A DNA stretch of 64,000 bases from Balanoglossus misakiensis (GCA_040954595.2 CM082597.2:1594886-1658885); one strand, 5' to 3'. Positions 5,435 through 46,315 are shown, numbered from the stretch's first letter. Notes: generated from the letters alone by a model not told the origin. A program made the numbers and translations.

Positions 5435-8400
5435 CTATTTCTCTGTCCTTTTTGTTGCGTTTTCAGCACTTGCACCATCGGAAACATTTCGAATATGAGC
5501 AGTGGAGTTCTGTCCGTCAAGTGAGTTCTTAGATAAGAGTGTGTAAGTACTGTACGAGTGAGTGTCCCCTGCAGTAAGCAATGCCTTGGAATCACTTTGG
5601 TCAGCTTGCGAGTCTTCGTAAATATTCTGAGAATTCACATCTGAGCCACTTTTCATGTCGTCATTGCGCAGCGGTTGGATATTGCGTTCAGGTAAGGAAA
5701 CCTTTAAATTTGTTTCGCTTTCAATATCAAGCTGTGCACTCTCTGCACCTCCAGTCCTTCCAATATTATAATTCAGTTCTATTTCTTCCTGCGATAAGTT
5801 CAAATCTTCCAACGGTATGCCGTCAACAAATGGAGGCGGATCTATTCCATCCCCGCTATTCTCACTAATTGGTTGGTATTCATCAGAATGCCGATCGTCG
5901 CTGTCTGATTTGTCCTCTTTGTTGAAGAATGCTTGTTCTATCGTGTAGTAAACCGACATGAAGACGGCAAAGCTACCAATCAAGCAAAGAATCTGCAGAA
6001 AAATGAAAAAAAGATCATGGATGTAGTCACTGAAACTAAACTGCATCTATGTACTATAAAACGGGGAATGTATGGTTAACATAGACTTACCTTGAGTGTT
6101 CTTGGTGAGATAAGTTTGGATTCATCATACGCCACTGGTAATGGGGGTGGACAGGGCCGAGTTTCATTCATGTGTAAATAATCGCCGAACATGGCATCTT
6201 CCACTTCACTGTGGGGGAGGAAGGTAGATGTTAGATATAGTTACTTATTGAAATGAAATGAGGTGAAATCCTAATAATCTAATTGAGCATTCTTGTTTGC
6301 TAAAGATTATAAGATAGGTGTGGTTTTGCACACACAAAAACCTTGTGTCACTAAAGATACTAATTTTCAATTTCCAATCAAGTATTTTGTTTTGTATTTA
6401 AGAGGTAAGAGTCAACATACTATCGTCTGAGTCTGAGGTCATTTGAGGTCATAGCTGATCCATACAATGTCAACTTCCAATGGTGGAGTTTCGCGGAGTG
6501 GGCACTTCCTGCAGAAAGTAGGTAAGAATGAACATAATTATTTACAACACCATTTCCAAACTAGAATTATGTGGCTTATGTCAGCCACTACGTTTGCTAG
6601 TGGTAGAATGACGCTTTGAAAGATGTTTTTATGTGAGCGACCATCTTGGATAAGTGTGTTAATTTTATGTGAGTTGACTACATGGTCACTTACCGTGATC
6701 TATAACCCGTAACTTCCAAACTCCAGCTGGCCTTTCGCCCCAGCATCTAACCGTTGAGAATGGCCAGTCCACAAACCCTGAAACAGAACTGTAAATATAT
6801 CTAATTAGTATCAATTTGACAGCAAATACGAACGAATACATAATTCCCATATCGGCACTGGTGGAAAAGCATACTGATTCAATGAAGGGTTATATTTTTC
6901 ACCCAAAATGAGCAAAATGTGGCTATTCTATGTGAACTTACGTGTCTTTTGGTCGTGGTGATGCGATAACCGATGTAGTGCCGCTTGGGCAGATAAGATG
7001 CATGGCAAGTTGACCGCGTACAGCATGTGAGACGGAAACCGTGACTTGGACATGTTCTAATGTCTCCATCTGGACAGAAGTGGTCTCTTCTTCAGTTACT
7101 GGAAAGGAATAATCAACGTTAAAACAGGTAAAGGGTCTTTGTCCTGTACCATACAATATGTGTATTACTATACTGCGAAAGAGAGCAAAGAATGTTAACA
7201 TCATATGCCTTACTTTCAAAACTAACGATGAGAGTGTCTGTGCCATCTGGTATCTTCTTCTCTTCTGAGATTTTGGATGTGACCATTGAAGTCATCCATG
7301 GCACGTTCTGCCAGACCTTGGCAGCGTTGACAAGTCGCCACGCGTTCAGAAGGCCAAAACCATGTTGGTGGCTGTGGTGGAACCCGGCCTTGTTGGTGTA
7401 CCATACAGAATTACCTTCATCCACCTGAAAACAAAATGGAACAATCCAATACTCATGTGTTACTGGAAGAGTTCATACTGTCCTGGGGGTGAGTTTATCA
7501 CAAAATTATTTATACCTTACTTGCATGTCAACATCTTGCAAACGAAAACATACCCCACAGTGCAATTTAGAAAATAAGCCAAAACAGGAAGTGAACGACA
7601 GGCCACAGGTCAACTCACCAGTGTTGAGGTCATCACCATGATGTGTTGGACATCTCTCCACGTCAGACATGGCCTGGCTTCCAGCATCAAAGCAATCATA
7701 CCGGCTGCCAGAGGGGCAGCAGCTGACGTCCCTGTGTGTTTAGTGGTACAGCCTGTGCCTTGCCCAAGTGTCCAGTCTGTGGTTACCTAGGATTAAACAG
7801 CCATAAAGCACTTAACCAGGGTTGACTTTTTTGACACATTCATGATATTTATTACATGTTTGCAGCCATAGAGATAAGACTGTTGACACCTGGACCATGA
7901 AATGGGGCCGATTTACCCTTTTGAGTAGCTTCTTGGTAACACATACATGCACTATGTATCTTGATAAACACTGTTGATTCAAGGGGTGTTCTTGTCAAGC
8001 TAGACCGAGAATTTATGTAATTATTGTGGAAGAACACATCATTCAGGACTCTCCAGTTGAGTTGGCATTTGCCAAAACTTGATGGAACAGAGAAAAAAAC
8101 TTCAGTAACATGAGAACGAAAATTTCAACTTACGATACTTCTTTCTGGGTTCTGTCCACTGCTAAAAGTCACAGCTATCATAGAAGCACATTCCTCGGCA
8201 TAAAAAGGCATGAGTCCTTTCTCATCAACAGCTCCTATGATTGCGAACCAAAAAACAACTTACATATTAAAGGGACAATGTCACAAAGTCATCAAATATT
8301 CCTTGACAAAGCAAACATAATCCTCTCTTCAGATATTTTACACCGATAAAAAAGTTCTCGTAAAGAAAATGAGGTATCTACCTATCGTTATTGTGTAAAT

Positions 8401-11400
8401 TGAATTGGCATAGCCATCGAAGTTGCAGTTGTCACCATAGCGACCACCGTTCCCACTGGCAACCACAAAGATGTTCCCGTATCCTTTTCTTCCAGCTGAA
8501 ACTCCGTGTTGAAGAGCAGCCTGGATTAGAAGAAGCAAATGAAGATGGTTTAAAATCTGTATTTATAGATTACTTCAATAATGTAGATAGATTCTACCAA
8601 AGTTTACTAGAGGAAATTACGGGCTATAAAACACGGTGATCTTTTGAAGGATGTGGTAATAGTAAAGAAGATTTGTGGTAAGTGACTGAGATGGAATACC
8701 TTTGCAAGAGGATGGGGACCATCTACCGTTTCACCGTCATCATCAGGACCCCAACTGGAAGAAATCACAGAAATGTAAGTTTCATCTAAATACATATAAG
8801 AATGTGTCGACAAAACATACTATTATCCTGAACAGCAATTCTGATAGAAGTTTACATGTTGAGGGCGCTCTTGCAACTAATACCAGTGCACCAGAAATTA
8901 ATGTTTACCTGCAGCTATAGATGTCGTTGACCTGCATATATTTATTGAACGCTGTGGCTTCTAGACTGTCGGTCATAGGACCATCTAAGGCACGTATTCC
9001 TAAATGGGAGAAGTCAAATAATACGTGGTTGTTACTTTGTATTACACTGTAGTGTAACTGCTACAATGTACATCATTGCAAACAGTTTGGTTGTTACTTT
9101 GTATTACACTGTAGTGTAACTGCTACAATGTACATCATTGCAAACAGTTTGGTTGTTACTTTGTATTACACTGTAGTGTAACTGCTACAATGTACATCAT
9201 TGCAAACAGTTTGGTTGTTACTTTGTATTACACTGTAGTGTAACTGCTACAATGTACATCATTGTCAACAATATGGTTGTTACTTTGTATTACACTGTAG
9301 TGTAACTGCTACAATGTACATCATTGCAAACAATGTGGTTGTTAGTTTGTATTACACTGTAGTGTAACTGCTACAATGTACATCATTGCAAACAATGTGG
9401 TTGTTACTTTGTATTACACTGTAGTGTAACTGTTACAATGTACATCATTGCATACAATGTAGTTGTTACTTTGTAATACACTGTACATCATGGCCAACAA
9501 TTATCAATAAGTATAGATATAGACTGAAACTATAATACATGTCTCAAACATAATCTGTATTTTATCAATCACACTGTATGGCTGTTAGACTTACCTGAGA
9601 CTTTAGCACCGTGAGCTACCCCCACCCCGCATATATTATTGGCGACTGCACCAATCTCCCCCGCACATCGCGTACCGTGATGATTTTGCCCCTTGGCATC
9701 TACGGTCGGCATGGGATCCGCATCATTAGAATTCAAATCCCAGCTCCCTTCTTTGCTCTGTAAAAGAAATCATATATGATATATTGCCCACGCTGGATTG
9801 GAATATTGCTTGATACATCTGAAATTACTTTATTCATTATGTATCTTTGTGAAACACAGGTATTGAGCTGTTTCACTTGGGTTTATATGAGCAGAAGTGC
9901 TTGTCCAACAAAAGTATTCAACTATATTTCTCATCATGATCAATTATTATAATCCTTGTATCCAGAACCATCTGCAGGGAATTTCATATCAAATCAATGA
10001 AGTGTCAGACTGTCCCATAGGAGGATTAACATGAAACAGTACATCATCAAAGGATGGGGATTCTCTGTGATGCAGATGAGATAAGGCTAGTAAAAGATTA
10101 CGATGTACTCACATAATTCTCTAATATATCTGGGTTACTCCATTCAAGGCCTGCGAAATAAACCAGACAAATTTATTTGCATGAGTGGTAGGAATTACTC
10201 ATGTAGATTTGTTTTCATTGAATATGCCTGCTTGCATATATGTAATTTGATATAACATGCATGTAGAATATCACAGAAATATGAAGACTGATTTTTGTAG
10301 TTTTCAGTACGTGTGGTTAATTTTCAGAAACTGTGAAATATAAATGTAATGCATTTTCTAATTGGAGATATTTTGTCATAAATATCACGAGTCGAGTCAC
10401 AGATGTTTCATCGCTGTTGTGTCGTCTGGCACAGAAATATTTTATTATTATCCAAAAAAGGATAATTACAAGTCATACGACTGAAACAGGTAATTATTTT
10501 TACACAATTTCAAATGGTTTTACTCTGACCAATCACAACACTGGCAGCTGACTGTGGTACAGTCCCAGACTGGACTACGCTAGTTTTCACGTCTCATCTG
10601 CATAATGTGACCTCATTTGCATACAATATGACCTCATTTGCATACAGCACGTGATTATGACTAAGGCGACAATAGTTTGCGAACATCTGCCGCCAGGTTT
10701 ATTGATATTTGATTTCAAAAAAGCAGTTTTATAATAGTAATGCAATAAGATTTGAAAAACCCAGTCTATTTTACAAAATAAGCAGCCATTTCAGAAATCA
10801 CTTGGTTTTAGTAATTTTCACCTCAGTCCTGGAATATTTTTTTTTCAAATTTCACTGAACAACAATTCTCATACATGTACATCTTTTTTTATCTATGGTT
10901 TATCTTGCACCAATGCTGATGTGTAATATTGACACAAACTCTTTTTTCCTGCCAATGCAGGCAACCTTGTAATCTTTCTATTTTTTGAGTGCAAATTCCT
11001 TGGTTGACTAGAATTGCTTCACATGGGTTTATTTACCCATGTCAATAACTTGGTATTTATCAAATATTCTACTTGTAGATGTGGCATGTGATGACATTGG
11101 TTACGCAGAACTGTGGACAATAACTTACCATCATCAATGACGGATACTGTCACCCCTTTCCCAGTGATTCCATTCTCCCAGACACCGGTGACGTTGATAT
11201 CCATCAGTGGGTACCGGAAATTATGCTAAGAGAGAGACAACACAAAGAGATGGAAGTCATTCCAGGCTTTGAAAGTAATGTCAACTCCATGGTGATGAAG
11301 GATATGTCGAGGTAACAGTGGAAAGTAATTTGGTGCTGTACTGTACACATACATGTGTGTTGTCAAAACTCCTAGGGCAACAGCATACACCTATCCCCCC

Positions 11401-11946
11401 CAACCAAAGAAGCCTGGAATATGTCTTTGATTGGTTCGTAAATGAACTTACCAGGTGCCACTGGTAGGGAAACTCTGGATCGGTGAAGTCCAACGACCGT
11501 TTGACTCTCTGTCGTATCACCTGCTGATTAAACCACTCAATGTGTTTGTGATCTGAAAGTCTCTTCTCGATATCATCTTGCAAATTTTGTAAATTAGTTT
11601 TGTCTTCATCCGATGCTTTATTGTGCGTTGAGTTGTGGTAAGTTTCGTGCACAAATAAATAATGGCCGAACAGCTCTCCGACTTGCCCCATACTGATCAA
11701 TCCCACCTCCCTCGCGACTAGATCCGCGACTTCGTCAAGAACGGTTTCGTTCGACTCCAGAACTGAATCAAAGCGGATTTTGACTCCCCAGGATGGCGTT
11801 CCTTGTGATTTTACGGACACTCTCTGCCCGGACGTTTCTTCGGGCACGTATCGAAGATACAAGGCACATATTGAGGGCGCTTCCAGGAAGTAACACAAGA
11901 CAAGAAGCACCGTCAAGCGTTGAACAGCTGATGCGTGCACGCACAT
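5435..11946 (-). CDS. PCSK7: Proprotein convertase subtilisin/kexin type 7 (PC7), about 857 aa
   Basis: 15 phase-consistent exons: 11946-11452, 11225-11129, 10150-10113, 9757-9595, 8999-8909, 8754-8700, 8520-8382, 8234-8134, 7786-7619, 7424-7214, 7098-6942, 6788-6694, 6508-6421, 6208-6091, 5992-5435. Signal peptide; prodomain cleavage RQRVKR|S; catalytic Asp (VIDDG), His ([10 protein letters not shown]), oxyanion Asn (VASGNGG), Ser (HTGTSAAAP); P domain (TLEHVQVTV...FSTVRCWGE); TM helix. PC7-type motifs [17 protein letters not shown] and [22 protein letters not shown]. Confidence 0.95.
9027..9490. repeat. 62-bp minisatellite, about 7.5 copies, in PCSK7 intron 4
   Basis: Unit ggttgttactttgtattacactgtagtgtaactgctacaatgtacatcattgcaaacagttt starts at 9027, 9089, 9151, 9213 and onward; the first three copies are identical and later ones diverge. 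Confidence 0.95.
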
Positions 11947-13000: not shown

Positions 13001-13117
13001 CTGTAGAATACAATGTCTGCATCACGACAGTGTTAGGCAGTGTTTGTACTCGCTCTAGATGCATTCATCAACAATTCACCATACACAGTTGGTGCCGAAA
13101 ATATCTGCACAAAGATC
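13001..13117 (-). other. Probable non-coding 5' UTR exon of PCSK7
   Basis: Strong minus-strand acceptor (tttttttattttctgctag) and donor (ctacag|gtaaga) flank a segment with stops in all three frames. A further donor at about 12480 (acg|gtacgt) and an acceptor at about 12010 (tttttttcag) lie between it and the PCSK7 ATG. Confidence 0.45.
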
Positions 13118-15239: not shown

Positions 15240-15272
15240 TCGGATGTGGCAAATAGCACCGAATCAGTCACG

Positions 15273-15273
<1 letters not shown>

Positions 15274-15318
<45 letters not shown>
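15274..15318. repeat. (TGTC)n/(TC)n compound microsatellite
   Basis: gtctgtctgtctgtctgtctctctctctctc... read directly. Confidence 0.9.
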
Positions 15319-15323
<5 letters not shown>

Positions 15324-15927: not shown

Positions 15928-17205
15928 TTAAATTATCCAAATTGTCATTATTGCAACTGGAAGCACGAATCCCACAATCCTTTGCGTGATGTCGACGGAA
16001 GCGCTGAACTCATTGCAACCGTCTCCCTGGCAACAGTAGACGCAGTCTGCGGGCGAGCGGAAACAGTCGTGGTTCAGCGACGCTATGATTTGACACTCGG
16101 CGAAGTTCTTACAACCCTGGCGAGAAAAAAAAACACGGAGTGTAAAGTGTTTATGCAGATGAGTATGACAGGCGTCCAATCAAAATGGCTGAAATCTTGT
16201 CAGTTTTTTATATATATATTGCAAGATTGATTTACCACTCTTACCTTGGTGTATCGTTTCCCGAAGTGATCGTATCTCTCCGCTTCCGTGTAACATCCAT
16301 CCTCATTTTGATCGGCGTTGCATTGAACGGTTTCACCGTTACATAAAGTGTGCGATCCCTGTCGGTAGCAACTGTGACATGTCAAACCTTCAAGATAATC
16401 AAAATGTCGGAGACATAATCAGGTGGCTGTGACAGAGATTAGATTACCCTAATTTTCACATTCAATGACGTATATTCTGGCGGACACAAGTCATTACAGT
16501 ATGATTAGATTCTTTGAGTACGTGTGTTCTAGATCTGGCCATGAGACCTGGTTACTCCAGCTTCTTTTGTTGTGTCCTACTAACTTGATAACATGACACA
16601 CCCTGCGGTACAATTGTTTTCTGGAAACAATGAGTTGAAAGCTGTATCCGTGAACAATTTATATCACATGACGTATTCATTTATCTATACTTCCTTGTGC
16701 CTCACAAAAGCCTGTGGCGGTTGTCTGAATTCACAAGGTCCTCTGAATTATGGGGCCTCCACTGTGTAAAGGAGTGGTGTGTGGAACAGAAACATGGAAA
16801 GCGTATTGTGGTGGTACAAGTCGTTACGCACTTTAAAACGCTTAATCGTGAGGAAGACAGTAGCTTTTAAGGGGCTTTTATCTTATATCAGTGACTCTAA
16901 TATCCTTACCACAAACCGTGCTGTATTTCTGATTAAGAGGCAAAGGTTCCCCTATTTCGGATGAAAAGAGTCATTTTTATTTTTTTATAATCCCACCTCG
17001 TAACGGACGACGACCAGTAAACACTGTTCCTTCGCTCACTGAAGTGACCTTCTTTTTATGATCAAAGATGGCCGCCTCCAGTGTATGAAATCACCTTGAC
17101 AATATGGGTCCCACCAAAGTCTTCATCGACGAACCTACCTGTTGTACCCCCGAGTGAAGTTAATACCAACAGCAAAGCGATTCTCAATGTCCAAATAGTA
17201 TCCAT
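15928..17205 (-). CDS. Single-domain Ly6/uPAR (three-finger) GPI-anchored protein, 132 aa
   Basis: Exons 17205-17139 (signal peptide MDTIWTLRIALLLVLTSLGGTT), 16387-16245 (GLTCHSC...CNGETVQC...DGCYTE...YTK) and 16116-15928 (GCKNFAEC...DCVYCCQGDGCN, then a hydrophobic tail). This is the classic 3-exon Ly6 layout with the CCxxDxCN motif. Confidence 0.9.
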
Positions 17206-19843: not shown

Positions 19844-20710
19844 ATGCCACAGAATCATCGACGGGGTCGACGTCGGCGACAAGGCAGAACGTCGAAGGTG
19901 GCGTGTGGGCCTGCTCGTGGCGAGATTAAACCAAAAACCCTAATCTTTGGTGAGAAACAAGACTTTAGTATCCTAAAAGATGGATACATATTTCGAGTTT
20001 CCAGAAGCACACTTATGCACAACTTCGGATACTTCGAGACCATGCTGTCAAAACCTGACTTCAAAGAGACACAACACAACCAGGTAGTTCTGAGCAAACC
20101 CTTCACCATTACGTCACTCAGAATTCTTTTGGATTTTGCCCACAATGGTAGGTTACGGGTACAACCTCATGACGTCATCGACGTAGTTACAGCCGCTGAC
20201 TACTTCGACATGAAAGTTCGCCCTCTCGTGTTGGCTCTTCACATGTTTTACTTGAACATCTCCGTTAAGAACTGGCGCGGGTTTTACCACGTGGTCAAGT
20301 CAACAAATATTGCCTTCACGCAAAATTGCAAATACATATCACGGTTCATGTACATATTAGATTGCTGGATGAATGATAACATTTGCTTCATAAAGTCTTC
20401 CGTACGAGCGATAGGGGAAAGAACCACGTTGTCAAATCGCAACGTAAAAGATGTCGTTGAACAGAAGTCTTACGATGGACACACTCTCATGTTCCTGCTT
20501 CAGTTTCATTCTTATAAGTATTTAAGCAAACCAAGCAAAATCGTTGAAGACATATTTGTCCCTGTTGCTCACGTTTCCGTGAAAACGACTGAAGAATCAA
20601 TGCGCTATTTGACGAAGAAAGGGCAGAATAAAAAGGACAAGTGCCCCCTGTACACTTACACACGTAAATATACTAATTTCGCGAAATCATCTACATACTG
20701 TAACTCATAA
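19844..20710 (+). CDS. Intronless BTB/POZ-domain protein (Kelch-like BTB plus degenerate BACK, no Kelch repeats), about 288 aa
   Basis: First ATG at 19844, with an acceptor-like cctttttatcgtag just upstream. BTB motifs DFSILKDGYIFRVSRSTL...YFETMLSKPDFKET...VVL...SLRILLDFAHNGRL...VIDVVTAADYFDM; BACK-like start NISVKNW; basic N-terminus (RRGRRRRQGR). AATAAA at 20788. Confidence 0.75.
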   Translation: MPQNHRRGRRRRQGRTSKVACGPARGEIKPKTLIFGEKQDFSILKDGYIFRVSRSTLMHNFGYFETMLSKPDFKETQHNQVVLSKPFTITSLRILLDFAHNGRLRVQPHDVIDVVTAADYFDMKVRPLVLALHMFYLNISVKNWRGFYHVVKSTNIAFTQNCKYISRFMYILDCWMNDNICFIKSSVRAIGERTTLSNRNVKDVVEQKSYDGHTLMFLLQFHSYKYLSKPSKIVEDIFVPVAHVSVKTTEESMRYLTKKGQNKKDKCPLYTYTRKYTNFAKSSTYCNS

Positions 20711-31100: not shown

Positions 31101-34100
31101 CATGCAAAGGCGTGCGTGTTAATGCAAGAGAATTGTGTCATATGCTTTAGTGGGTGTCTGTGACTGAGTCTGTACGTGTTGGTGAGTGGTGATACAAGTT
31201 TTGAAGAATCATGCAAGAAACATCTATATATACAAGTATCATATACATTTATAAACTACACAATAGTGACACATACCAGTACCAAGTACATGCACTGTTC
31301 AAAGGCAAAAAATATCTAGCCCACCACCCATGCCCAGTCCCATACCATCCCAGAAAGTGCAGTTGACTTGAACTTGCCCCATCCTTTACATTACACCGAT
31401 TACAAGCGAGACAATACTACTTACAACACCACGTGAATAATCCATAAGAAGTGTGGTTTATCACAACTAAGACCCACATTCTAATTAGGCACTTGTAACC
31501 ACATTATGTTCATGGGTACATATCTTATGTAGGAATAATAATGATGGTTGAGACAACCAATCAAACATAATGACATCATGACTGTCAGTACGGCATTTCA
31601 GTATTAGGTTTTTAAGATATTGGCTCCCCGACAGATCTCTTGGAAATTATTATTACTCATAGTAGCTGATGGAATATTTAGAAAATTATACACATTGTAT
31701 GCTATTGCTCCTATTTTCACACCTTACTACTTTAAGTTTTACTTCTGATCAGTGTTTCAACAAGATTGTCCTCAACTACATCAACAGCTAGTAAACAAAC
31801 AGCTGAATAGATATTTGTATTTTTCTAAACGCCCTCTTGTTTCAGATTAGGAGGTAACATGATTGACTGCTTACTACATGGAATTTGTTATGGTTAGTGT
31901 TCTGTGTAACACACCAATGCAATTACCTATGAAATTAGTTGAACTGCAGATTTATATGTTCTCATGCGTTTTTGTGCAGGCTATGATTCTTGAGAGATGT
32001 TATTCACAAACCAATGAATGGATGATATGTGTCTTTGACTTATGAAATGAAGCAAAAAGCATAACTTTGTTAGTTACTTTATCCTAAAACTGAAAAGCAG
32101 TGACAGAAAAAATGCCATGTGAACAATCTACATCATTGATTTTCGCAGATTTCGCTTTAGTAAGCTTTCAATTTTTAACATCAATTTAAGTTTTTGGAGT
32201 TCCTAGTTTGTTGTCTTTTTTATTTACATGGTGATTTCAATGTAAATGGGGGAAACACAGGACATGAGGAAAAACAAGAATTTTGTTTGATTATTGTAAG
32301 AATGACATGCCATGAATGAATGTGTCAGGTTTAGTGTAAATCCGTGGAATTCCAGTCTTACAACCACGGAAAGGAGCATCGGGAGATGTTCCGGAAAGGG
32401 AACATCACATGGAACGAATATTACGGATAATGAAGATCATCAAAGTAGTGCCACTATGAAAACTTAATGTGGTTTCAATATGAGATAAAATATGTGGATT
32501 AACTTTGGGAGAATGGGTCAGATTAAGGAAACGATGCATGGGGGATTGCATTAGGCAGTTACAATTCATTATATATGTAAATTACATGCAGATTACATGC
32601 AGAGGTGATTTGCATATATGCGTGCATTGGGAGAGCTACCGATTCGGTTTTACGACTACATATACTTTTGGGGTTTCTCTTTGGAGTGGAGTGGTTCAGA
32701 GGGTAGCTTTGCTGTTGTAGATATTACGAGAAGAGACGTACGTGCAAACTACTTTCTACGACTGTGATTACCATTAGCCTGTTTAGATTAGTACGCCCCT
32801 ACCTCCGGGTTATCGGTCTCGTCCTTCAATTCTTTAACCTGTTTTCGGGCTTTCATCCCTTTAAAACCTGCTTGAATTTTGACAGCTGCTTTTTCAACGT
32901 CAGGATCCTCAAGGTCAATGTCAATCTCCTCCTCCTCCTCGGTTGGAGTCACGTCATCCGTCACATTCCCCCCTTTTAGTTCCCCGACCTCTTTTCGGGC
33001 CTTGAACCCCTTGAAACCAGCTTGAATCTTAACAGCTGCTTTCTCCACCTCAGGATCATTCAAATCAATATCAATTTCCTCATCATCAACCCCCTCTTTT
33101 TGCCCCTCCCCGTCTCTCATTTCTGTCACCTGTTTCCTGGCTTTGAACCCTTTAAAGCCAGCCTGAATTTTGACTGCCGCTTTCTCAACATCAGGATCAT
33201 TCAAATCAATGTCAATTTCTTCTTCAGCATCAGCTGCTTCTTCTTTGTCCAACATTTTCCCCTCACCCTCTTTCAATTCACTGACCTCTTTTCTCGCTTT
33301 GAACCCTTTAAACCCAGCCTGAATTTTGACCGCCGCTTTCTCAACCTCTGGATCGTTCAAGTCAATGTCAATATCCTCCTCGGACACCTCTTTTTCCCCC
33401 TCCCCCTCTTTCATATCCGCCACTTGCTTCCTGGCTTTAAAACCTTTGAAGCCAGCCTGAATTTTGACCGTTGCCTTCTCAACTTCCGGATCATTCAAAT
33501 CAATGTCAACTTCCTCTTCTGTGTCAGCTGATTTTTCTCTGCTCAATGTTTCCCCCTCCCCTTTCAATTCACTGACCTCTTTTCTAGCTTTGAACCCTTT
33601 GAACCCAGCCTGAATTTTGACCGCAGCTTTTTCAACCTCTGGATCATTTAAGTCAATGTCTACCTCTTCAGCCGGTGTCTCCTCAGCAGGTTTCTGTTCT
33701 TCCTCTGCCTTGCTTTCTCCTTCTTTCATTTCCTTGACATGCTTCCTTGCTTTCAGCCCCTTGAATCCAGCCTGGATCTTCACGGCTGCCTTCTCCACTT
33801 CCGGATCTTCCAGATCTATGTCAATTTCCTCTTCCTCTTGTTTCTGTTCTTCCACCTATGGATAATAAAAAGAAAGACTCTCAGTGTTAAGAAAGTAACT
33901 GATCAGCAGCCGGATATATACATGTACCACAACGCATGTAACTTACAAGTGGCACAATTTTTAAATTATCCGTTCTACTATTTTCTACACAAATCACGTA
34001 TTTAATGTTTTAATACCTTGGTTTCTGTTGCTGTTTCCTCCTCAGCCTTTTCCTCAGTTTCCTTCACAAACACAAACATGGACACAAAATAAACATCCAC

Positions 34101-37100
34101 TGACAAGACAAACATGAAAATGACGTACAAGACAAACATATATAAATTGCATGTGTACAACACAAGGTGGTGACTGACCTCTGTCTCTGCTGGAGTTTCC
34201 TCAGTGACAGCCTCTTGTGTTTCCTTGACAAACAAGACAAACACAGATAAACAAACAAACAAACAAACAAAAACAAGACAGACATTGACACAGACATACA
34301 CAATCACAGACTGAATGTCAAATTGCTGTTGGCTGACAATCACATCAAAAGTCAAACCTGACATTGATGTGATGGTCACTTTGGATACCAATACTGGTTA
34401 ATTTCATTCTTTGTCAACAACAACAACAACAACAACATACACACCTGAGTCTCTGCTGTAGTCTGTTCCTCTACTTTCTCCTCTACGTCCTTTTGCACAC
34501 AAAGCAAAACAGCACAAATAAGACAAAACAAAGGGCATGCAAACAAGATACATGGTTCACATGGACAAGCAACATAACATAAATGTATACAGCACATGAC
34601 AGCTGACATACTACACAAAAAAGGCCTTTGGTAAAATGGTGTCTCAAAGTGTGACAAAACACCGTAAATAAACAAAAAAGCAACAATATGCCTACCTTTG
34701 ATTCTGTTGCCTGCTCTGCTTCAGCGACTGGTTCACTGGCCTTCACAAAACACAAACACAAACATCAACATAAACAACAATATGGACAAATAAAAACAAC
34801 TAAGCACTACACTATACATGTATGTGGTGATTACAAACTGGTGATCCATTTCATATTAGCAAACGAGTTTTGATCTGTACTATATCACTATGGCATCGCG
34901 GTCTCAGATCGTCAAAAGCTGATCAGCTAAAGTACAATAACGAGAGATGTTGTGTGACATACTGTATTACACTGTAATACCTGCATGACAGATTACCAGA
35001 GTGCATAACAGGATATCCCATCTTGTCGTTTAGAAATCTAGTGCATAATTATGTGATGCCGATTGCATGGCAAGAGCTGAAGGTTTATGTTGTGCCAATG
35101 GTTTTGATGAGCAGTGCTCTAACCATCATACAATACTGACTGAAATATCTGCTTGAATTTCACGGTTGATGTCCTTTAAAATGAACATCTGCAATTTCCG
35201 TGACTACCAAAGCAAGAAGAGTTGAGTGATGAAAGATCACAATCAACGAAAGCACCAGGGTGTAGCTAATCTGCCGTCATGAAAAGGGATCAAACCTTTC
35301 ACAGGCAAGGTGAATGAGATAGAGAAGATTACAACCAGACCATCTGTTTGTGGAGAAGATCTGACATGTGCAGAGGCAGAGATACAGTTGGTGCCCTAAT
35401 TGATCTTTCCCCAAGGAATATCAGACAGAACTTTTTTGCGCTTGGCAGTAGAGCAGTTACATCACATATGCCCTGAAAGGTGCACAGATCTTTGCGGAAC
35501 CGAACGACAAACCTCCTCAGTTTCTGTCTCCTCTTTCATAACCTGTTCCCCTTCCTTCACAACCTCCTCTGCGAGCTCCCTCACTGCCTTCTCCTCAACC
35601 TCCTCCTCATCCTTCTCCTCTTTTTTATCCTTTACAGTTTCAGCTTGGTCCTCAACTTTGACCTTCATCGGTTAGTGGGTCACATGACAGAGACACATTA
35701 GATGAGGATGAAAGATGAAACAAGATGAAAGTGAGAATGGTGTTAGAAGACATGATGAACACAAATGACATGAAATGTTATGTCTCACGCCGGGATAATT
35801 ACATACATGTATATGTGTAGTTGTATCTACTGCTCAATTTTGCTCAATTGTCAATATGTTTTGTGGCATATTTTGATCAATATTTTCGTAATGACAGCTA
35901 GCTAGGTATGCAAAATTACATTTCACAAAGAATCAAATAATATAGCAACGGACAGTTTCTGATAATAATGTTTTGCTTTAGTCATGATTTGGAATGAAAA
36001 GGCTGAGAAATGGATTTTCATTTTGTGGGCTGGCTGAATGGTTGATCAATGATCTGATGGGCATGCATCTCACTATTATGTTGTTACAAGAGGTCAGTTA
36101 AAACACACCTCCTCAACCTTAACCTCCTCTTGTTCAATGGTTTGTTCCATCTCAGTCTCTTCTTCTTCTGGGGCCTGCTCCCCCTCATCGCCATTGACAA
36201 CCACACTGTCATTAGTCGTTTCCTTTGTTAGTTAAGTATGAAGTGAAATGTATACGTAACGATAATAATGAAAAAATGGATGAAATGATGGCCACATACG
36301 GTGAAATGGAAAACAATGAGCATGAAACTACAATGCAATGCTTCTAACATGCTACTAATACTGGACCTTTTACAGTATATTGCATTGGCATAAAACTGTA
36401 TCATGTTCCAAAATGCAATGCTGTATGTATATTATTAGGCTAACTGAACCACAAATACCTGCATAAGTCTATCATTAGCAAAATATCACATAGTCGTGAT
36501 ATTGGATTTTGGCAGAGTCGAGTAACAGCAATGATTTTCAATGACAACCATGACAAAACACGCACAAAGCCTCATTGAACCACTGACAATTTGCAACTGA
36601 AACAATTCTCAGAAAAGCTCTATCTCCTGATTAGATTTTCTTGTCGAGATAAAAGGATGAATGTTCTGCACGTAAAATTAGACACAAAGTTGCATCATCA
36701 ATCATGCTGAGGCTAAAGTAGGATGATTTCTTCTAATGCAAGTTCGATCGATCAGTTGTGACCTGGCACTTGCTTCTCGCGGATCACTGAAACTTTTATC
36801 AATCATTGCAGTCATGATGCTATCTCCTTTTATATTTTTCTCCTTCTTTGCGGGCAGCTGCGTGAAGCACAGCAGGCTGCCACGTTTTTTCTACATCAGC
36901 TGATTCCCAGCACGACCAGTGATGTCATGTCACGTTTAATGAGACGATTTCCCGTGGGGATTCAAACAAATGAGGCAGAGTCTTCAATGATGGGTTTTTT
37001 CTTGATAACGTCACAAACTTCTCCTTATACTAACATGAAAGTACACAGCACTTGTTCTGTTACTATAATAAGAGTAGCTTGATGTCACGCCACTTCTTTC

Positions 37101-40100
37101 ATTTTCAATTTGATCAGCGTGAAATCGAAATTACCATCCAACCCCACACACCACAGTGATCGACACCAAGTGTCAAATTTGTGGCAAGAATACAATCAGA
37201 AATATTTGACAAATCATTCCTGAGGCGACCGGCGACCACTTATGTGAACACACACTTACCTGTTCTTGATCAGTTTTCACTTCCTGCTCAGTGGCAGCTA
37301 CTTCCTCGACAGCATCCTTGGAAATTAAAAATTCAACACACAGACATTTACAAAAACTGAACAAATAAAACATGGCAGACATGTACAATGTATACATACA
37401 TGTATGTATGTATGTGTGTGTGTGTATGCATTGTATGTATGTACACGTATTTACATGTACGGTATGTATGTATGTATGTACATTGTATATGTATGTGTAT
37501 GTATGTGTGTGTGTATGTATGATTGGATGGATGGACATAATATTATACATAAATTTGATGAACAAATTCAACGGAAAATTAAAATCAAACATCAAATATG
37601 AAGAAAACAAAAAAAGACAAAAATGTAGACAATCACACCCTACCTTTTTCTCAGCAGGGGCCTGTTCCCCTTCATCTTTGACACCATTTTCTTTTGCCTC
37701 CTTTGACGAACCAACACAAAACAAAACAAGTCACAAACAAGGACAAGACAAGGTGTGTACATTACTGCTCGCATGGGTACAGTACATGTAGGTGACATAC
37801 AAAATGTGAGGCGGATTTGAACAGTTTTATCATTGCTATGAAATGGAATGGTAGAATGCTAATAGACTAAGCATCCTACATACTAGTAGTACATAACATC
37901 AAACCTCACAGACTTCAACTGTGGAGCCTAGGTATTGTATATAAGCAGGTCAGACTCATACAATGAGATATGAGGTCAATATATTAAAAATACATGTACA
38001 ATACTTCATTTCAGTAGAATCACTATGCACATACCGGCAGCTAGGTGAGATGAATGTTAAAATTTAAAATACTCATATGAATTTTTAAAATGGAATTAGT
38101 CATCGCCAAGCTGGCAGATGGTGGATGGATGGTGATCTCAAACTGATTGTGAGGGCTCTTGTAATAAAATCATGTGTCCAGGAGTTATATTATTGCTTTG
38201 GAATGATAATGAAGGAAATTTGCAAGCTTGACATTCTTACAACCTCTGGTTTGGTACGGATGGGAAACCTCTTTAATTATACCAGAGTTGTCTCAATGAG
38301 CCTCAAAAACACAGGGCAGCGATTATTTACACAACACCACAATGCATGTGTTACACAGCCCGATGTAAACAATTACACCATGTGTATAAAGTGTTAGTGT
38401 TACATACAACTTCGTAGAACAGGTAACAAAACACCACTACATGTAACTTACCCCTCTCAGATGGTGGATATTCTTTAAAGCCGATGTTTCAATTCTGTTG
38501 CTTTAGTCAATATCCAACTTTAAGGTACATCAGCCAACTCGAGTAACTGTCGACTATTTTTCAATGCTTTGCTCTGTATATCAACCTCAATAATATTTTT
38601 ACTGAAATATGAACTTACAACTTTCTCTTCTGACTTCATTTGATGGACTTCTTTCCTGGCTTTGAGTCCTTTGAAACCAGCTTGGATTTTCACGGCTGCT
38701 TTCTCAACTTCCGGATCATTGAGATCGATGTCAATCTCCTCTTCTTCCTGTTTTGTTTCACTGTCTTTCCTGGAAAAAACAGCAATCCAATATCATGTCA
38801 TGGAAGTACAATATTCCATGTTAACAGAGGACAGTGTGACAGGGCATTGGTCTGCATGGCTCATATTTACACATGTACTGTTCTTTTGAAGATGAAAACC
38901 ACTTACTTCATCTCTTCAACCTTCTCTCTTGCCTGGTGACCTCTGACCCCTGCCTGGATTTGCGTGGCTGCTGCTTGTTGCTGTGGGTCGCTTGCGTCTC
39001 CGATGTTTTCCTGAAAGCAACAAACACAAACAAAAAGTGTGGAAAACGAACCAAAATAAACAAACCATGACAAAACCATAAAAGTAACTGAAGAAGATGC
39101 TATATACAGGAGACTCATGCATGTTGAAAATGATGAGCGAAAAAAAAATGGGGTTAAAAATCCATGCATGTTGGCATGCATTCTGTGAGCACTGTGAAAC
39201 AGTAAGATGATGATTTTAGGAATGGAATTTTTTCAAGAACACAAAATCATGTGAATTGATAACAAATGACAGTTTTATCGAGTTTTGTCGAGATATTAAA
39301 TTACAAACACAATGTATGAGAAGTATAGTTTTTTTTAAATACAGTAACTCAGACATAAAGATACAGAGAGCAGCTGGCAAGATGCTATCCCAGGGGTCTG
39401 GATGAAATTCCGGGAAAACGGGTGAACGACCATGAGACATGCGGGTTTGTGATGCCGGGGGTTCGTCATTCAAGGGTTTGCAAAAGAAAGAAAAATGGTT
39501 GGTGGGATACACCGAGTTAGAACGGAGGGAGTCACAGTCTCACATGTTTGGAGCGCCGGGATAGCCTGGAGCTGCCCTTTCCCATGTTATGTGTGGGTGA
39601 GGAAGTCTGCAAAGGGAAGAGAGTTGTGAGCTGTGTGTGAGTTGATTAAAAATGAATGTACAAGGTGGAGTGTGCTCTGGTGATACAGAAGGAAAATCAG
39701 CCGTAATACTGTACATAGGGAACTGTGTGCAAGACAAAACAAGTTACTTTGTTTTGTTTGTTTTCTTCGTCATCACCATGGGACTGAGCAATCATAGGGG
39801 GTCCGATTTGGATCTGATCACTACTTCAGACCCTTTTTCACAGAATATGAAACGTGATACAAGAATTCCTGATTGAATATAACTAAACAATTGCCCAATA
39901 TGTGGGACTGGCATTATAAGACACATTTTGGGAAAAAGGCTGGTCTGTAGCTGGAAAGATGTCAAAACTGAAAAAGTTAGAAAGGAAGACTAGAATAACC
40001 CTGGCAGGTGGCTTTTGCTGCTAATGGCTCGTTATGCATCAATCATTGTAGAGTATCTTTAAATAGAGATAATACATGCAAAGGAATACCATCGTAAATA

Positions 40101-43100
40101 ATCCATTCATGGAAGGATCCATACAAAATTGCTACTAACTCTTTCTTATTCTATTCAGCACAGAACGGTTATCGATGATGAGCTTGTACGTTCCAGAAGA
40201 TAAAAATGCATATTTGATCAGAACTTGTTACGCATAAAACTAGTTACCACTAAGGTAATCTGCTGTACAAGATTCTGCTACACGCAACTTATACACAAAC
40301 TTCAATCCATTATAATTTGATATCACTGTCTTGTCCCTTCTGTTTCACCTCTTATCAAATTATAACTCATATGTACAGAACGATTGACATTCATATGAGC
40401 ATAAAAATGAATTAAACTCTTTTGGGAAATTACAATCAGACATTCTGGTGGGGTTTATGTCTATCTCTCGCATCACGCATGATTGAACAATTAGTCTAAT
40501 GATATTGACACTAGCCACAAAATGTCAAAAGGCAGAAATGCAGACGAGAGATAACAGAACAAATTTGAAGTAAAATTTTTATTGCAGCCTGTCACGGGGT
40601 TCAGAAGATATGCAAATATCATGTGTGTCTATCACTTTGGCGTCTAGTATCATGTCCCGTGTTAATTCTGTAATGAGATGCAAAAAGTGAAAATACACCG
40701 TGATGATTGGCTAGCAAAAGTCATGTGATAGTAGCTCACTTGAGCAAAAATACTGAGTTGTAGAAATTATGATTTTGTCAGGATAGTGACAATTTTTTTA
40801 TGCTAGCAGTGTGCCAGATAGGTACCACCAGCACACAAAATGATTTGTACGAGAAACATTTCCTTCTCTTTAAAAAATGAAACTGTGATGAATGTTTTGC
40901 GAGTGACTTTCTACGATATTCATAAATATCTCCAAAATGGTCTTTTGTGTGTCGCCCCGCATTTCAATTCCCAGCGGATAATTCCCCCATCAGCCTCGTA
41001 ATATCAATAATTTATCATTCGCACATCAATCATGGATTCAATTAATGCCATGCATAAATCAGCCTTTTATCTTATCAAAGATAAAAGCAGCCCCGGCAAT
41101 GGTCGGTTTATCATTGCATGGAATTAGGAATTCACGTCAGGTGTGTTTCAGTCATTACCATGTATGCACGTCTGATGCATTGTGAGTTTAAAGTTTTACT
41201 ATGTGCCAGGAGGAGAAATTCCTTTGCAATGTCGAATGAGTCTATGCCAGGATCAGTGTGACCTATAAGCTCATATGATGCGCCACTGACTCAACAAACT
41301 CACTGGTGACTCAAGAAAATTATCCACTATACTACATACAAAGGTATACGGCTGACTCAGGGAAATTTTTAGAAATCCTCAAATTGACTCAAAGCTTTTT
41401 AAAATTATATATTTATAGGGTACACTGGTCAAGATATGGGTACCAGCCAGTGGGTCTTTTGGCCAATCAGTGGGCCATTTTAACCCACTGACTGGGTCAT
41501 TTCAACCCACCAATGGGGTCCTTCCAAACTGCAAGTGGGTCTCTTTCGCCTACCTGTATTAGGGCATTGGAAGCACATGGACAACTTAGCCTGAAGGTTC
41601 TTGGTCAAAATCCTAATCGCTAAATATGCAATTGTCTTTATAATAATGAGATGCCATGTCAAGGAAAATATCCCTTCCAGGCCTCCACGAATATCTCAAT
41701 CAAGGACAAGGATTTAAATAATCCCCATGGAATTACCAGCGCCAAATAGGGAAAACTGACTTCTTCAAATTATCCACTATTCAGGATAATGAGGATTAAA
41801 TTGAAAGAGTGACAGTAATATTGCATTGCAGTCATCATTTATGAGTAAATTAAACCTCATGTTCTGACTACAATGTGTTGAAATAAATTGGCGTTGACAT
41901 AATTGAATATCACCTCGCATTTGCTCATGTCCTTAGGACAAGATATTACATGTAATTTATACCGAATTGGTAAAACTACAAATTCAGATTTTTCCTCCTG
42001 AAAATTTACATTAATTTCAATATTCATTTGATATTTCACCAACACAAACTGGTTGACTAAAATTTTCATAAACAACATCTTACAATGAAAATGAGTTTCC
42101 TCAAAGAAATTCAAATTAATTTTCCAAATTGCACTTTGTATAATGAGAACTGGCAAAGTTTTGTTGGAAAAGTCCCTAAATTGGCCTCCAGATGAATACA
42201 TAAAGTTGAATTAGCGAAAGACAATTATTTTAAGATGTCATGATTACATCGTGTCAGGATCGACAGAATGAATCGATGTGGGGAATTAAAGTTCACAGGG
42301 AAAATCCATCTTACGTGAAGATCTACCAAAGATTTGTACGTGACTGTTCGGTACTAATTTAATAAGTTGGCATGTTATTTTACAATTTTAAAATAACAGA
42401 CAAAAATATCGCAGACTAGAAATATAGTTGACCTACCTACCTGCTGGCTGTGTCTTGTGTGTGTGGGTGGAATATGGATGTTTTTTACGACGACGGAAAA
42501 TTCAGAGAGTATTCCAGAGGGAATTTACGGAGAGTCAGGTTAAGTGGCAGTTGACAGATGGGATTCCTTGCAGAATCCAGATCAGTCAATATTTGTCAAA
42601 TCAAGCGTCAGATCACTATCAGACGTCAAGACTTGCTGTGTCACCTCGCCTGTGATTGGACAGCGTGCGATCACGTGAACCCCTGCCTGAGCAATTTCGT
42701 TACAAAGGACCTGATTGGTCAATATTCATCAACCGCTTCGATCAGTACAGTATTGCTCTGTAGAATATTGGCCAAATCCCAGAATGTAAATTTCTCTGAA
42801 TTTTTTGTCGATTTGGTTGGGGGTAGTGAGTTACATTAAAGTTTATAACAGATAGACCAATGGCCCGGGATCTGTGCGACTGTCTGTATATTTTATACGT
42901 ATGTGTTCGATTGAGAAATGTGTTTTAGAAGCACTGGTCTGCATAGACTCGATACCACAGTTTCAAGTCACTACTAAACACTAAGCTATAGTCGCTGGCC
43001 TCTCAATTTGTGCAAGTGATACTAATTAGAGTCTTTGCAAACATGCAGACTCCCTCATCCCTGGAGAATTCCAGTCATTAGGCATGCATTAAATGTGGAC

Positions 43101-46100
43101 AAATTGATTAATTGCAAATGATTAAGAGTCCAAACAAACACCTGAATTCCAAGCACATTCTAGTTCTGATATTCTGATGGACGAGATGTAGAGCGACTAA
43201 TTTTTTTTAGATTGACAAGACCACCATGATAGCTGAGATTACTGATGGTGTGGGGGCATATGCGGAGTGCTCACGGCTGAACTCCTTTACCACTATGGTT
43301 TGGTCCAAATCCATTGTTTTCTATGGCAAAATTGGACTGCTAAAATGGATAACAGGGGTGAAAGATTAAATTTCATATGACCCAATATCTTATGTCTCCT
43401 CAGCAAATTAACCAGGTGAACCAGGTGTGTGTATTAAACAAAAAGAGACAAGAAACATATTCTTTTGCAATAATACGATTCTAGTTTATGTATGCAAGAA
43501 GGAAGATGTCGGCGTGCCGGTGTTTCCTGGAAAATATCCATCATCCATAGTCTTAATTTCCTGTTCTCTAGTGCCCCGGTACAAACCAGACAAAGAACAT
43601 TACCATTCCTGTGAAGTCTTCTAATGTTCATGTTATGCGCCTCACCAGACTGCCACTAAATTTGCCCAGATTAAACAACCTAACGATTTCATAATCTAGT
43701 AACGACAGAAAAATGTTCACAGTAGCGCAAAACTGATCAATGTTCGCACAGAGAAATTTACAATTGATCAGGTGACTTTATTTCTTAATAAAAACTATAA
43801 TTCAGGAACTCAGGATGTTCTGAAGACATTGTGGCAGCTGCAAGCATTCTACTGATTAATCAAAATGCAAGTCACATCACAAGTTCGGTCAACTTTTGAC
43901 ACTCAGATGCATGAGATGTCAGGTTGGGGCACAGGTTTTGGTGACAGACAGAGTGAGTGTATGCGTGTGTGTGTTTTTGCTGAATAGCAAGACTTACTTG
44001 GAAGGCTCTGTTGTTGTAGTATCTGTCTTGAAGTTTGGCTGAAAATTCTGCTGGATCGAAACCTTCCTCTGAAAAAGAATAAATACAAAATTTCGCCTTT
44101 TATAGCATGTCATGATCTGTTCACGAATGGATTGTACATTCACACCTTACGCATTGTCTTTTGCGTTTGCAACCATTTTTCGTGGTATTTGATTTACAAC
44201 GAAAAATTCTTGGGGGACACATATCACAAATTACGTTTTTACATGTAATCTAGCATCTTTTCTTATTTCAAAATGACTTGCTCTATCAAATACAATTATT
44301 TGAGAAACACACACACTCCATCACAATACAATCCACTAATGCATATTTCTTTGTATAAACTTCCGTCATTGTGAAGCAAGACCATGTAAGTGAAATTATT
44401 GATTTTTTTCTTTTTAATTCCTCCCATTACGACACGACACGTCATATGGTAATTTTTTCATTCACATTTCCTGTCCATTACCAATATTACCACCGAAAAA
44501 AACACTTGTTGAAATTTCAATCTTGTTGTCGAGCCATCAGAATATATGCATAATATATGTTAGCTTGGTAAGACATAATGTTCATTGATTGCATCTTTTC
44601 ATTAAAATTAAGCCTGGATATATTTAAAACAAAATGAAATATTAATAACGGTCATTTATTTCTCCGTTAAATTTTCTGACATGAGTTGTCCTAACATCAT
44701 ATCTTTATGTTTAAAAATGTTTTTGCTGTGTATATATTTTTCAGTTTCTCATTCGACTGCTGAAATTACATTTAAACACTAGATAATGAGCAATTATCAA
44801 CATAGCTAGAATATGCCCAACAATTGCAGTAATTGCTCTTGTTTTCCTGGAAAAAAAAGTGTTGGGAAATATGATTCGAAATTGTGCATGATATCGAATA
44901 TAAAAGCTTAAAGGGAAAGCTACAATGACTTACCTGCAGTGGCCCAACAACCAATTCTATAAAATACACACAATCAAAACGGAGTTCGACAGATGACGAC
45001 GCACAATGTGTAAGTCTCAATTACTACTTTCCTTAATAATGAATATTAATTTATCAGGCTGAGAACTAATATGTAGAGGGCATACATGCTAAAATCACAT
45101 TAGAATTGCTGTAGACCAAACTATTATAATGGTAGGGGTGGCAGCATGCCCAGCCGGGTCTTGTTTTATGTGAGGTTTAGTTGTCAAGTACCTTTCATGT
45201 GAATTTTAATATTTTTATTCTCATTAATCTTAAAGCAAACTTGCAATGAATGAGAAAAATAAAGATATTGTTTAAACTGATACGGACATTTGTTGGACAA
45301 ATGAAAAAAGTAAGAAATTGAACATCAATTCATTTTAATGTGTATCCATCTTTTTGTTTATTTCAATATTTTGTTTATTTCAATGATATTGACGTACTCT
45401 TTGCAAATCATATCAATGACAAGATAATATATGTTACCAACTTTAACAAATACAGGCAACTGTTCAAAATGTGCTGTTTTTATGTTTAAACAACTTTAGG
45501 CAAAATACCATATACCACATTTTTATAAATTAATGTGTGATACACTTTCCAATGGAACAAAGTAGGGTTAGGAATTTTGACAAAGGTGTCAGACGTCCTA
45601 ATTAATTCAGTTTCACACTGGTATTTCAAACAGCTGTCTTGGAGTTGGAATACGTTCCACAGACGTGTCAGTCTACGAAATCAATACAGAAAAAGTGGTC
45701 CATTCACGTATTTTTCCCCACATCAGACAATTACCAAATGATGCTGGCGTTGCTTGACAACAGATGCTAAAAGGAATTTCATCAGTCCACGTTCAAAACA
45801 TTAGAAAATGGCCTGGTTTCAGAAGCTAACAGTACACACAGCATGTCGATTCTTGTGCCACATCTGGATCAAAATCCCTTGGCAAATATAAAGATCGTGA
45901 TTTGGAGCAATCGGAAAGGTTACTTAATAACACAGGATTTCAAGCGGATCATTTTTATAGTGTTAATGCTAAATCACACATGCGAAAAACAGGTTCTGCT
46001 TTTTTGGTGTGTTGATGCATAAAATCTCGTGCACGATCACGAGTGATACGGAGTACAGTACAAGCCACTACATGCATACCGCTTACTGTTATAAACACAG

Positions 46101-46315
46101 AGCTTGATCACTATGACGTGGACATTAGTAATGTAACTATGAGCACAAGATCGCATCTTACCTTCTCTGATTCGTAAAAGTTTATCGAAATAATGCGCCG
46201 AAAACTGGTAAATATTTTCGGGTTGTTCTCTGAGGACTTCGCGGGCCAGACCCTCAAGGAGGGTCTGGAAGCCGTTCGGAACCCGTAATTTGGTGTTGGA
46301 AAACGGTACTGCCAT
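28118..46315 (-). CDS. SPA17: Sperm autoantigenic protein 17 ortholog, greatly expanded: RIIa domain + 11 IQ motifs + acidic E/A/P-rich tail, up to about 1032 aa with all cassette exons
   Basis: Exon 46315-46162 MAVPFSNTKLRVPNGFQTLLEGLAREVLREQPENIYQFSAHYFDKLL and exon 44068-43998 EEGFDPAEFSAKLQDRYYNNRAFQ match the SPA17 N-terminus (MSIPFSNTHYRIPQGFGNLLEGLTREILREQP...FDPAEWGSKVEDRFYNNHAF). Further phase-consistent exons: 39010-38907, 38769-38619, 37700-37644, 37316-37260, 36222-36109, 35662-35513, 34740-34696, 34489-34445, 34223-34179, 34061-34017, 33855-32803, 31073-30936, 28987-28118. Confidence 0.88.
30324..30415. mobile_element. 84-bp piggyBac-like MITE with TTAA target-site duplication
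   Basis: TTAA|ccctttcacc ... ggtgaaaggg|TTAA (element 30328-30411), with internal palindrome gtggttcgaaccac. Related or partial copies at about 43278-43369, 49271 and 51002. Confidence 0.75.
34017..37700 (-). other. Array of eight symmetric (phase 0-0) acidic cassette exons of SPA17 (57, 57, 114, 150, 45, 45, 45, 45 nt)
   Basis: Each is an open E/K/A/T-rich frame flanked by AAG| and |GT, e.g. tttgtgaag|GCC AGT GAA...TCA AAG|gtaggc and tttgtcaag|GAA ACA CAA...ACA GAG|gtcagt. All lengths are multiples of 3. Confidence 0.75.
37383..37535. repeat. (TATG)n/(TG)n low-complexity tract
   Basis: Degenerate tatg/tgtg/ggat repeats between two cassette exons. Confidence 0.85.
39544..39585 (-). CDS. Putative alternative first coding exon of the SPA17 locus encoding MGKGSSRLSRRSKH (N-myristoylation motif + basic patch)
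   Basis: Acceptor ctctcttccctttgcag| at 39606; Kozak aacATGG at 39585; 14 codons, then |gtgaga at phase 0, in frame with exon 39010 (phase 0). Confidence 0.7.
42442..42800 (-). promoter_or_regulatory. Candidate internal promoter and non-coding first exon within SPA17 intron 2
   Basis: Minus-strand donor ccagcag|gtaggt at about 42441. Just upstream: clustered CCAAT boxes (attgg on + at about 42655, 42714, 42766), an E-box CACGTG (about 42672) and a CRE-like GACGTCA (about 42622). Confidence 0.5.

Follow-up and report, generated by a model that had tools for sequence, protein, structure and literature searches.

Background

SPA17, neurogranin, GAP43 and igloo share a single family in the PANTHER database, and GAP-43 is known for its lipid anchor and its Ala/Glu/Pro tail. 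Calpacitins are small neuronal proteins that stand alone and bind apo-calmodulin. They are recognised by an IQ motif of the neurogranin/neuromodulin/PEP-19 type, an acidic segment with a hydrophobic plug, two Asp and a Pro, a Ser inside the IQ motif that is phosphorylated by PKC, and the Arg at neurogranin position 38. Igloo is counted among the calpacitins (PMC9618489), the R38A substitution of neurogranin abolishes binding (PMC3589724), the R51K substitution impairs PEP-19, and residues of the PEP-19 acidic segment plug into the C-lobe of calmodulin and steer calcium (PMC5122967). SPA17, together with ROPN1L, binds AKAP helices and is located in cilia and sperm, and the available part of that publication mentions neither neurogranin nor calmodulin (PMC8339350).

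Fish gene names already mix SPA17 and neurogranin, and the available part of PMC9415131 notes the zebrafish nrgnb alias spa17 and sets it aside on identity. The relatedness of SPA17, neurogranin, GAP43 and igloo seems to be known and a fission unstated: no statement of a fusion or fission was found in the literature on neurogranin with SPA17/Sp17, on calpacitins, on igloo or on an amphioxus origin, the search covering mostly papers outside subscription, and PMC11043121 mentions neither Sp17 nor RIIa.

In this work we analysed a window of 64,000 nucleotides from Balanoglossus misakiensis (CM082597.2:1594886-1658885). A first-pass annotation had proposed that the vertebrate calpacitins derive from an internal-promoter isoform of an ancestral SPA17-IQ gene, and had suggested a phylogeny of the acidic IQ units and a search for SPA17-NRGN read-through in basal vertebrates. 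We conclude that SPA17 and neurogranin were very likely once one gene, which many jawed vertebrates keep joined and which is divided in the amniote records seen.

Methods

Exon models were built from Pfam matches, a six-frame scan of the window and in-frame joins. A search with the exon 13 protein gave 365 proteins, and taxa were drawn from the best 120 of them. Gecko SPA17 was searched against 50% representatives, and the 150 listed matches were classified by pattern. The PDB was searched with a profile of the acidic unit built from invertebrate sequences only; GAP43, PCP4 and PCP4L1 were compared through PDB chains only (PCP4 and the neuromodulin IQ). The IQ-unit tree was built from 90 units and 34 columns, leaving out the Rhopilema units and the units of three proteins, and the RIIa tree from 47 regions; the full GAP43, PCP4 and PCP4L1 sequences and amniote neurogranin stand outside the trees.

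Results and discussion

An SPA17 gene with ten acidic IQ units

The six-frame scan located acidic repeats on the minus strand of the window, within a chain of 15 in-frame GT-AG exons that runs from 46315 to 28118. The predicted protein is free of stops, has 1032 amino acids, begins with the SPA17 RIIa domain, continues with a single plain IQ and then carries ten acidic IQ units of the pattern [IV]DIDL[NED]DP..IQAGFKG.KARK. The features of the gene are as follows.

46162..46315, minus strand: exon 1, SPA17-type RIIa docking/dimerisation domain, then a phase-1 intron (Pfam PF02197, E 8.6e-16)
43998..44068, minus strand: exon 2, extended SPA17 segment with phase-0 end (in-frame join; 81% to Glandiceps)
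42440..42760, minus strand: putative internal promoter and non-coding first exon, picked out by eye (two CCAAT boxes, donor near 42440)
39544..39585, minus strand: predicted alternative first coding exon of 14 codons, MGxxxS (phase-0 donor, in frame with exon 3)
38907..39010, minus strand: exon 3, plain IQ1 without acidic motif (Pfam and in-frame join)
38619..38769, minus strand: exon 4, acidic IQ unit 1 (Pfam and in-frame join)
34017..37700, minus strand: exons 5-12, eight small phase-0 linker exons rich in Glu/Thr/Ala (in-frame join)
32803..33855, minus strand: exon 13, acidic IQ units 2-8 (Pfam and in-frame join)
30936..31073, minus strand: exon 14, acidic IQ unit 9 (six-frame scan and in-frame join)
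28118..28987, minus strand: exon 15, acidic IQ unit 10, a 177-amino-acid Ala/Glu/Pro-rich tail and the stop codon (in-frame join)

The continuity of the SPA17 N-terminal exons with the acidic repeats, claimed in the first-pass annotation, is borne out by the in-frame joins and their AG/GT borders, from which we infer that the 15-exon chain is spliced in B. misakiensis. The gene carries an N-terminal RIIa docking/dimerisation domain with an SPA17-type extension and, past it, an IQ motif in exon 3; exon 13 by itself holds 7 IQ stretches (Pfam E 4e-46). The end of exon 2 is equivalent to the point at which two Xenopus isoforms diverge. The closest named protein comes from the acorn worm Glandiceps talaboti, also the nearest neighbour in the RIIa tree; consecutive segments of its model are 88, 81, 76 and 71% identical to exons 1-4, and its isoform covers exons 1-4, 13, 14 and 15, the linker exons 5-12 being absent from that isoform, a match in keeping with a hemichordate origin of the window. 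Pfam matches to Yop-YscD, Seipin and Leukocidin were rejected as repeat or chance matches.

A predicted short isoform

The exon at 39585 combines a myristoylation-type start and basic residues with a phase-0 donor that fits exon 3. No second MGxxxS match of this kind occurs on either strand of the window. Among 500 simulated introns, 7 yield one, by criteria chosen after the exon had been seen. It likely starts a short isoform without RIIa, of a predicted 971 amino acids. Isoforms that lack RIIa and start with MG or MC are annotated in Branchiostoma belcheri, B. lanceolatum, Haliotis and Ruditapes, entering before exon 2 in the molluscs and after it in amphioxus. The internal first exon lies in differing introns in molluscs, amphioxus, B. 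misakiensis and vertebrates, so that a single promoter orthologous across these groups is not established. In B. misakiensis, amphioxus and molluscs it precedes the plain IQ; entry into the neurogranin exon of vertebrates, in contrast, takes place after the plain IQ.

Neighbouring genes

Four further genes on the minus strand are as follows.

5435..11946, minus strand: proprotein convertase, 15 exons, 857 amino acids, transmembrane tail (Pfam and exon model)
15928..17205, minus strand: Ly6/uPAR three-finger gene, signal peptide, hydrophobic tail (Pfam E 0.00095, below the cut-off)
21194..23751, minus strand: second, divergent gene with RIIa and a single plain IQ, 7 exons, 305 amino acids (Pfam RIIa E 1.5e-5)
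24711..26346, minus strand: Pex19-like gene, CAAX-type end (Pfam E 1.5e-19)

The convertase is likely PCSK7, which we take it to be by its motif; one catalytic exon, compared with the PDB, gave no close match and was not close to furin. A tandem repeat of about 60 bases lies in an intron of this gene (9040-9480). The Pex19-like gene apparently lacks the N-terminal region, and its Glandiceps counterpart spans only profile positions 64-248 of 249; it may be a paralog, and for these reasons the argument from PEX19 synteny was set aside. The three gene types reported earlier as neighbours (PCSK7, PEX19-like and Ly6) are matched by a likely PCSK7, a Pex19-like and a Ly6/uPAR gene, and PEX19 and Ly6 are weak as synteny markers. 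The second RIIa-IQ gene shares with the SPA17 gene the intron phases after exons 1 and 2; its middle part is rich in Ser, and its C-terminal exon is charged. It falls outside the SPA17 group of the RIIa tree, on a long branch, and is possibly CABYR-like or an old duplicate.

Directly upstream of SPA17 (about 47570-51350, minus strand) lies a multi-exon gene that has one IQ (Pfam E 5e-5) and whose C-terminal half is acidic and helical; three IQ genes are found within 30 kb on one strand. The window also contains further Ly6-like cysteine-rich exons (950-2747, plus strand), a thrombospondin-like exon with an inserted furin-type site and SKSG repeats (1406-1840), an ORF of one exon with a BTB domain, placed between the Ly6 gene and the second RIIa-IQ gene (19739-20710, plus strand), two single-exon short-chain dehydrogenases in divergent orientation, presumably sepiapterin-reductase-like (53772-55702), and a death-domain exon with an intronless RING/B-box/NHL (TRIM-NHL) gene of 694 amino acids (56228-60249, minus strand).

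Invertebrate relatives

Among the matches listed for exon 13, RIIa is combined with acidic IQ repeats in Nematostella, Rhopilema, Macrostomum, Owenia, molluscs, Lytechinus and Branchiostoma. As this architecture extends from cnidarians to amphioxus, the locus is not special to this genome and is an ordinary member of a family spanning cnidarians to chordates. Seventy metagenome loci were fetched, 38 of them with a full-length match; a phase-1 donor follows RIIa in 36 of the 38, and the other two show transcript-like read-through from RIIa to acidic IQ units. The transcript-like contigs L002 and L035 carry the RIIa-acidic IQ architecture without introns.

The acidic IQ unit

The first reading had likened the acidic segment and IQ to PEP-19 and neurogranin, a likeness that extends to the anchoring residues: all ten window units retain, in register, the equivalents of PEP-19 Phe30, Asp31, Ile32, Asp33, Met34 and Pro37. 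The IQ is of the neurogranin/neuromodulin/PEP-19 type, and the acidic segment has its hydrophobic plug, two Asp and Pro in 10/10 units. The PKC site is occupied by Gly and the Arg38 position by Lys, each in 10/10, and for these two reasons the window units may bind apo-calmodulin more weakly than neurogranin does. Across the proteins gathered, the Arg38-equivalent position is Lys in 522 and Arg in 420.

In the PDB the unit profile placed PCP4 (42 bits), Sp17 (35.6 and 32.3), neuromodulin (32.5) and neurogranin (32) higher than SPATA17 (24 bits) and myosins (23 or less). The top whole-protein score, 53.8 bits over three IQs, belonged to Chlamydomonas RSP23, and acidic units are also present in an RIIa-IQ-GST family; the unit is therefore not unique to SPA17. 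The latter is a separate family (P0310, P0343) in which RIIa and numerous acidic IQ units are combined with a GST-like domain at the C-terminus. A comparison of scores between units sorted by the acidic motif was discarded as partly circular.

In the IQ-unit tree, a short alignment in which the bootstrap had not settled, all 9 neurogranin units of vertebrates cluster together (93/99). A 90/93 branch (unstarred, 34 columns) unites them with igloo, with 48 acidic units from invertebrates and with 4 units that did not score as acidic (3 from arthropods, 1 from an echinoderm), and all vertebrate plain IQs lie outside it.

SPA17-neurogranin fusions in vertebrates

The 150 listed matches of gecko SPA17 comprised 29 proteins with RIIa and a terminal neurogranin-type unit, 48 vertebrate-type SPA17 proteins without that unit, 34 other RIIa proteins and 39 that are not RIIa by pattern. 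The nine fused proteins that were named all come from frogs (Xenopus tropicalis, NP_001006758; Spea, Dendrobates, Hyperolius, Bombina, Pseudophryne) or ray-finned fish (Amia, Maylandia, Synaphobranchus), the Amia and Maylandia proteins being called neurogranin b by NCBI. Eleven of the 48 unfused proteins were named (Chiloscyllium, Hemitrygon, Erpetoichthys, Polyodon, Protopterus, Latimeria isoform X2, Rhinatrema, Ambystoma, Leptobrachium, Terrapene and gecko), a set that includes two cartilaginous fish, a bichir, a paddlefish, a lungfish, a caecilian, an axolotl and one frog; two further matches were taken as mammalian by likeness to PDB Sp17.

In the coelacanth, residues 482-542 of SPA17 isoform X1 are identical over 61 residues to UniProt neurogranin H3ACE7, isoform X2 departs from X1 at residue 481, exactly at the neurogranin junction, and X1 falls in one cluster with two UniProt neurogranin entries. 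The junction is common to coelacanth, the six frogs, bowfin and teleosts. The PKC-site residue of the fused proteins is Asn in coelacanth and Gly in Xenopus and teleosts, which agrees with the available part of the neurogranin comparison in PMC9415131, where teleosts, Xenopus and coelacanth have Gly or Asn. The SPA17-NRGN read-through proposed for basal vertebrates is thus present in coelacanth, frog, bowfin and teleost database records. Because these records join both in one protein, neurogranin, in mammals a brain protein, likely came from a splitting of the SPA17 gene, and we give a probability of about 85% to the reading that the two are halves of one ancestral RIIa-IQ gene, later split.

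A D-I-C-x-x-E-L motif, which may be a decayed acidic unit, is present in one to three copies in the linker of SPA17 proteins from sharks, coelacanth, paddlefish, bowfin and teleosts (P0457, P0331, P0373, P0375) and is absent from the frogs seen. A cichlid nrgnb model and a similar protein (P0338, P0332) have three neurogranin units, a re-expansion of the repeat.

Since 48 of the 150 listed matches lack the neurogranin unit, fusion is distributed patchily, which calls for either several splits or truncation of some models. The records from shark, ray, bichir, paddlefish, lungfish, caecilian and axolotl among them would suit a history in which SPA17 and neurogranin were already separate neighbours in the first jawed vertebrates and the fusions are secondary read-through or merged gene models, and models can indeed merge neighbours, as Glandiceps X16 does in continuing from SPA17 into the same Pex19-like neighbour. 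Most fused records are predicted XP models; the Xenopus one, however, is a curated NP entry, the junction is identical in coelacanth, six frogs, bowfin and teleosts, and the order RIIa, plain IQ, linker, acidic IQ matches the invertebrate gene. Absence of the unit can moreover be truncation, as Amia calva, annotated as partial, lacks the unit that A. ocellicauda has. Such an early separation, which itself implies a still earlier fission, is in our view very improbable. In the RIIa tree a starred clade (98/82) takes in all 18 vertebrate rows, and within it fused and unfused forms are interleaved with 4 changes each (42/500 and 47/500 shuffles were as low); the two forms are therefore orthologs and not two paralog classes.

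The SPA17/NRGN fission put forward in the first-pass annotation is therefore supported by the fusions as an event but not in its date: the split is late and patchy and does not go back to the origin of vertebrates. No lamprey or hagfish record was identified among the proteins gathered. In human we take SPA17 to lie upstream of NRGN on the same strand; the adjacency of the two genes, put forward previously for human, is reported for mouse and cattle.

The split could also have passed through a tandem duplication of the entire gene, after which each copy lost a different part: the upstream one would have retained RIIa and the plain IQ, and the downstream one an internal first exon and one acidic IQ. 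The position of the internal first exon, upstream of the plain IQ in B. misakiensis, amphioxus and molluscs, against a downstream entry for vertebrate neurogranin, would fit this course, as would the second RIIa-IQ gene downstream in the window. That gene, however, has diverged and stands apart from SPA17 in the tree, and the intermediate offered by the coelacanth is simpler, a single gene whose alternative ends meet at the neurogranin junction. We hold this course to be unlikely.

Under the preferred reading, a simple cut of one gene, the window gene, in which RIIa is followed by a single plain IQ and ten acidic units, would likely represent the ancestral form, and vertebrate neurogranin would likely be the split-off last acidic unit. 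In jawed vertebrates the gene was likely reduced to RIIa, the plain IQ, an acidic linker and one terminal acidic IQ exon, which would have its own promoter and into which coelacanth, frog, bowfin and teleost transcripts, going by the records, would still splice. Amniotes would then have lost the linker; in the amniote records seen it is gone and SPA17 stops after the plain IQ.

The wider calpacitin family

A broader proposal derives all vertebrate calpacitins (neurogranin, GAP-43, PCP4 and PCP4L1) and arthropod igloo from a RIIa-less isoform of one ciliary SPA17-IQ gene. We put it forward tentatively, with more doubt than confidence. That the acidic unit instead arose several times or was shuffled, so that PCP4, PCP4L1 and GAP43 stem from other genes and neurogranin alone from SPA17, has in our judgement close to an even chance. 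Units of a Lineus protein without RIIa match only PCP4 in the PDB, coelacanth neurogranin gives no PCP4 match at E up to 10, the arthropod igloo records seen have the acidic unit but are short and without RIIa, and the RIIa-IQ-GST family has acidic units too; all this favours that alternative. Against it, PCP4-like endings also occur inside RIIa-bearing SPA17 genes (P0348, L033), the Lineus units nest among such units (97/85), and no single unit in the PDB matches the SPA17-type profile better than PCP4. The best 120 of 1792 matches in a search of short proteins with the unit profile were invertebrate or unnamed proteins only.

As to the human map, we presume that PCSK7 lies on 11q23-24, PEX19 and PCP4L1 on 1q23, GAP43 on 3q13 and PCP4 on 21q22, in one 2R paralogon. 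In the first-pass annotation GAP43, PCP4 and PCP4L1 are possible 2R ohnologs of NRGN that lost the RIIa exons. A literature search for a paralogon linking the calpacitin regions found nothing direct; PMC2211742 gives map positions for PKNOX1/2 and POU2F1/3.

If the broader proposal were true, neuronal calmodulin buffering would have been co-opted from the second product of a gene for a calmodulin anchor of the axoneme, and genome duplication together with repeated late fissions would have set it free.

Possible function and significance

The long isoform would dimerise and, by docking on AKAP helices, keep calmodulin in place in cilia and sperm, while the short one would be a myristoylated, membrane-bound calmodulin store without RIIa; the acidic segments would tune calcium binding as in PEP-19. 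The product of the window gene would most likely be a multivalent calmodulin store with two addresses, axoneme and membrane, and without PKC control.

A fission of SPA17 would explain why zebrafish nrgnb is also called spa17. It would also allow neurogranin, which regulates calmodulin at synapses and serves as a biomarker of Alzheimer disease, to be traced back to an anchoring protein of cilia. SPA17/NRGN would be a clear case of gene fission via an internal promoter and alternative last exons, with living intermediates in the alternative ends of the coelacanth and the fused frog and fish forms. In practice, neurogranin mutants, probes and antibodies in fish and frogs may also hit the long SPA17 form.

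Comparison with known systems

The window gene shares with vertebrate SPA17, a member of the R2D2 family, the RIIa domain with its extended segment (exon 1 is 59-66% identical to Xenopus and coelacanth), the plain IQ that follows and an equivalent end of exon 2; mammalian Sp17, in contrast, has about 150 amino acids and ends after the plain IQ, where the window protein adds ten acidic IQ units. With neurogranin (including the long forms of fish nrgnb and frog spa17) it has in common the acidic D-I-x-L-x-D-P at an equal distance from the IQ and, in anamniote records, the presence of this unit in one protein with RIIa, but neurogranin has one unit against ten, and the amniote PKC serine and Arg38 stand against Gly and Lys in the window. 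All residues known to anchor the acidic segment of PEP-19/PCP4 are kept in register, although PEP-19 is a stand-alone protein of 62 amino acids with a different IQ tail. The IQ core of GAP-43 scores like that of neurogranin, and its lipid anchor and Ala/Glu/Pro tail are paralleled by the short window isoform, with its predicted lipid anchor and Ala/Glu/Pro tail. Drosophila igloo, finally, has an acidic unit like that of the window gene and differs from it in being without RIIa in the records seen.
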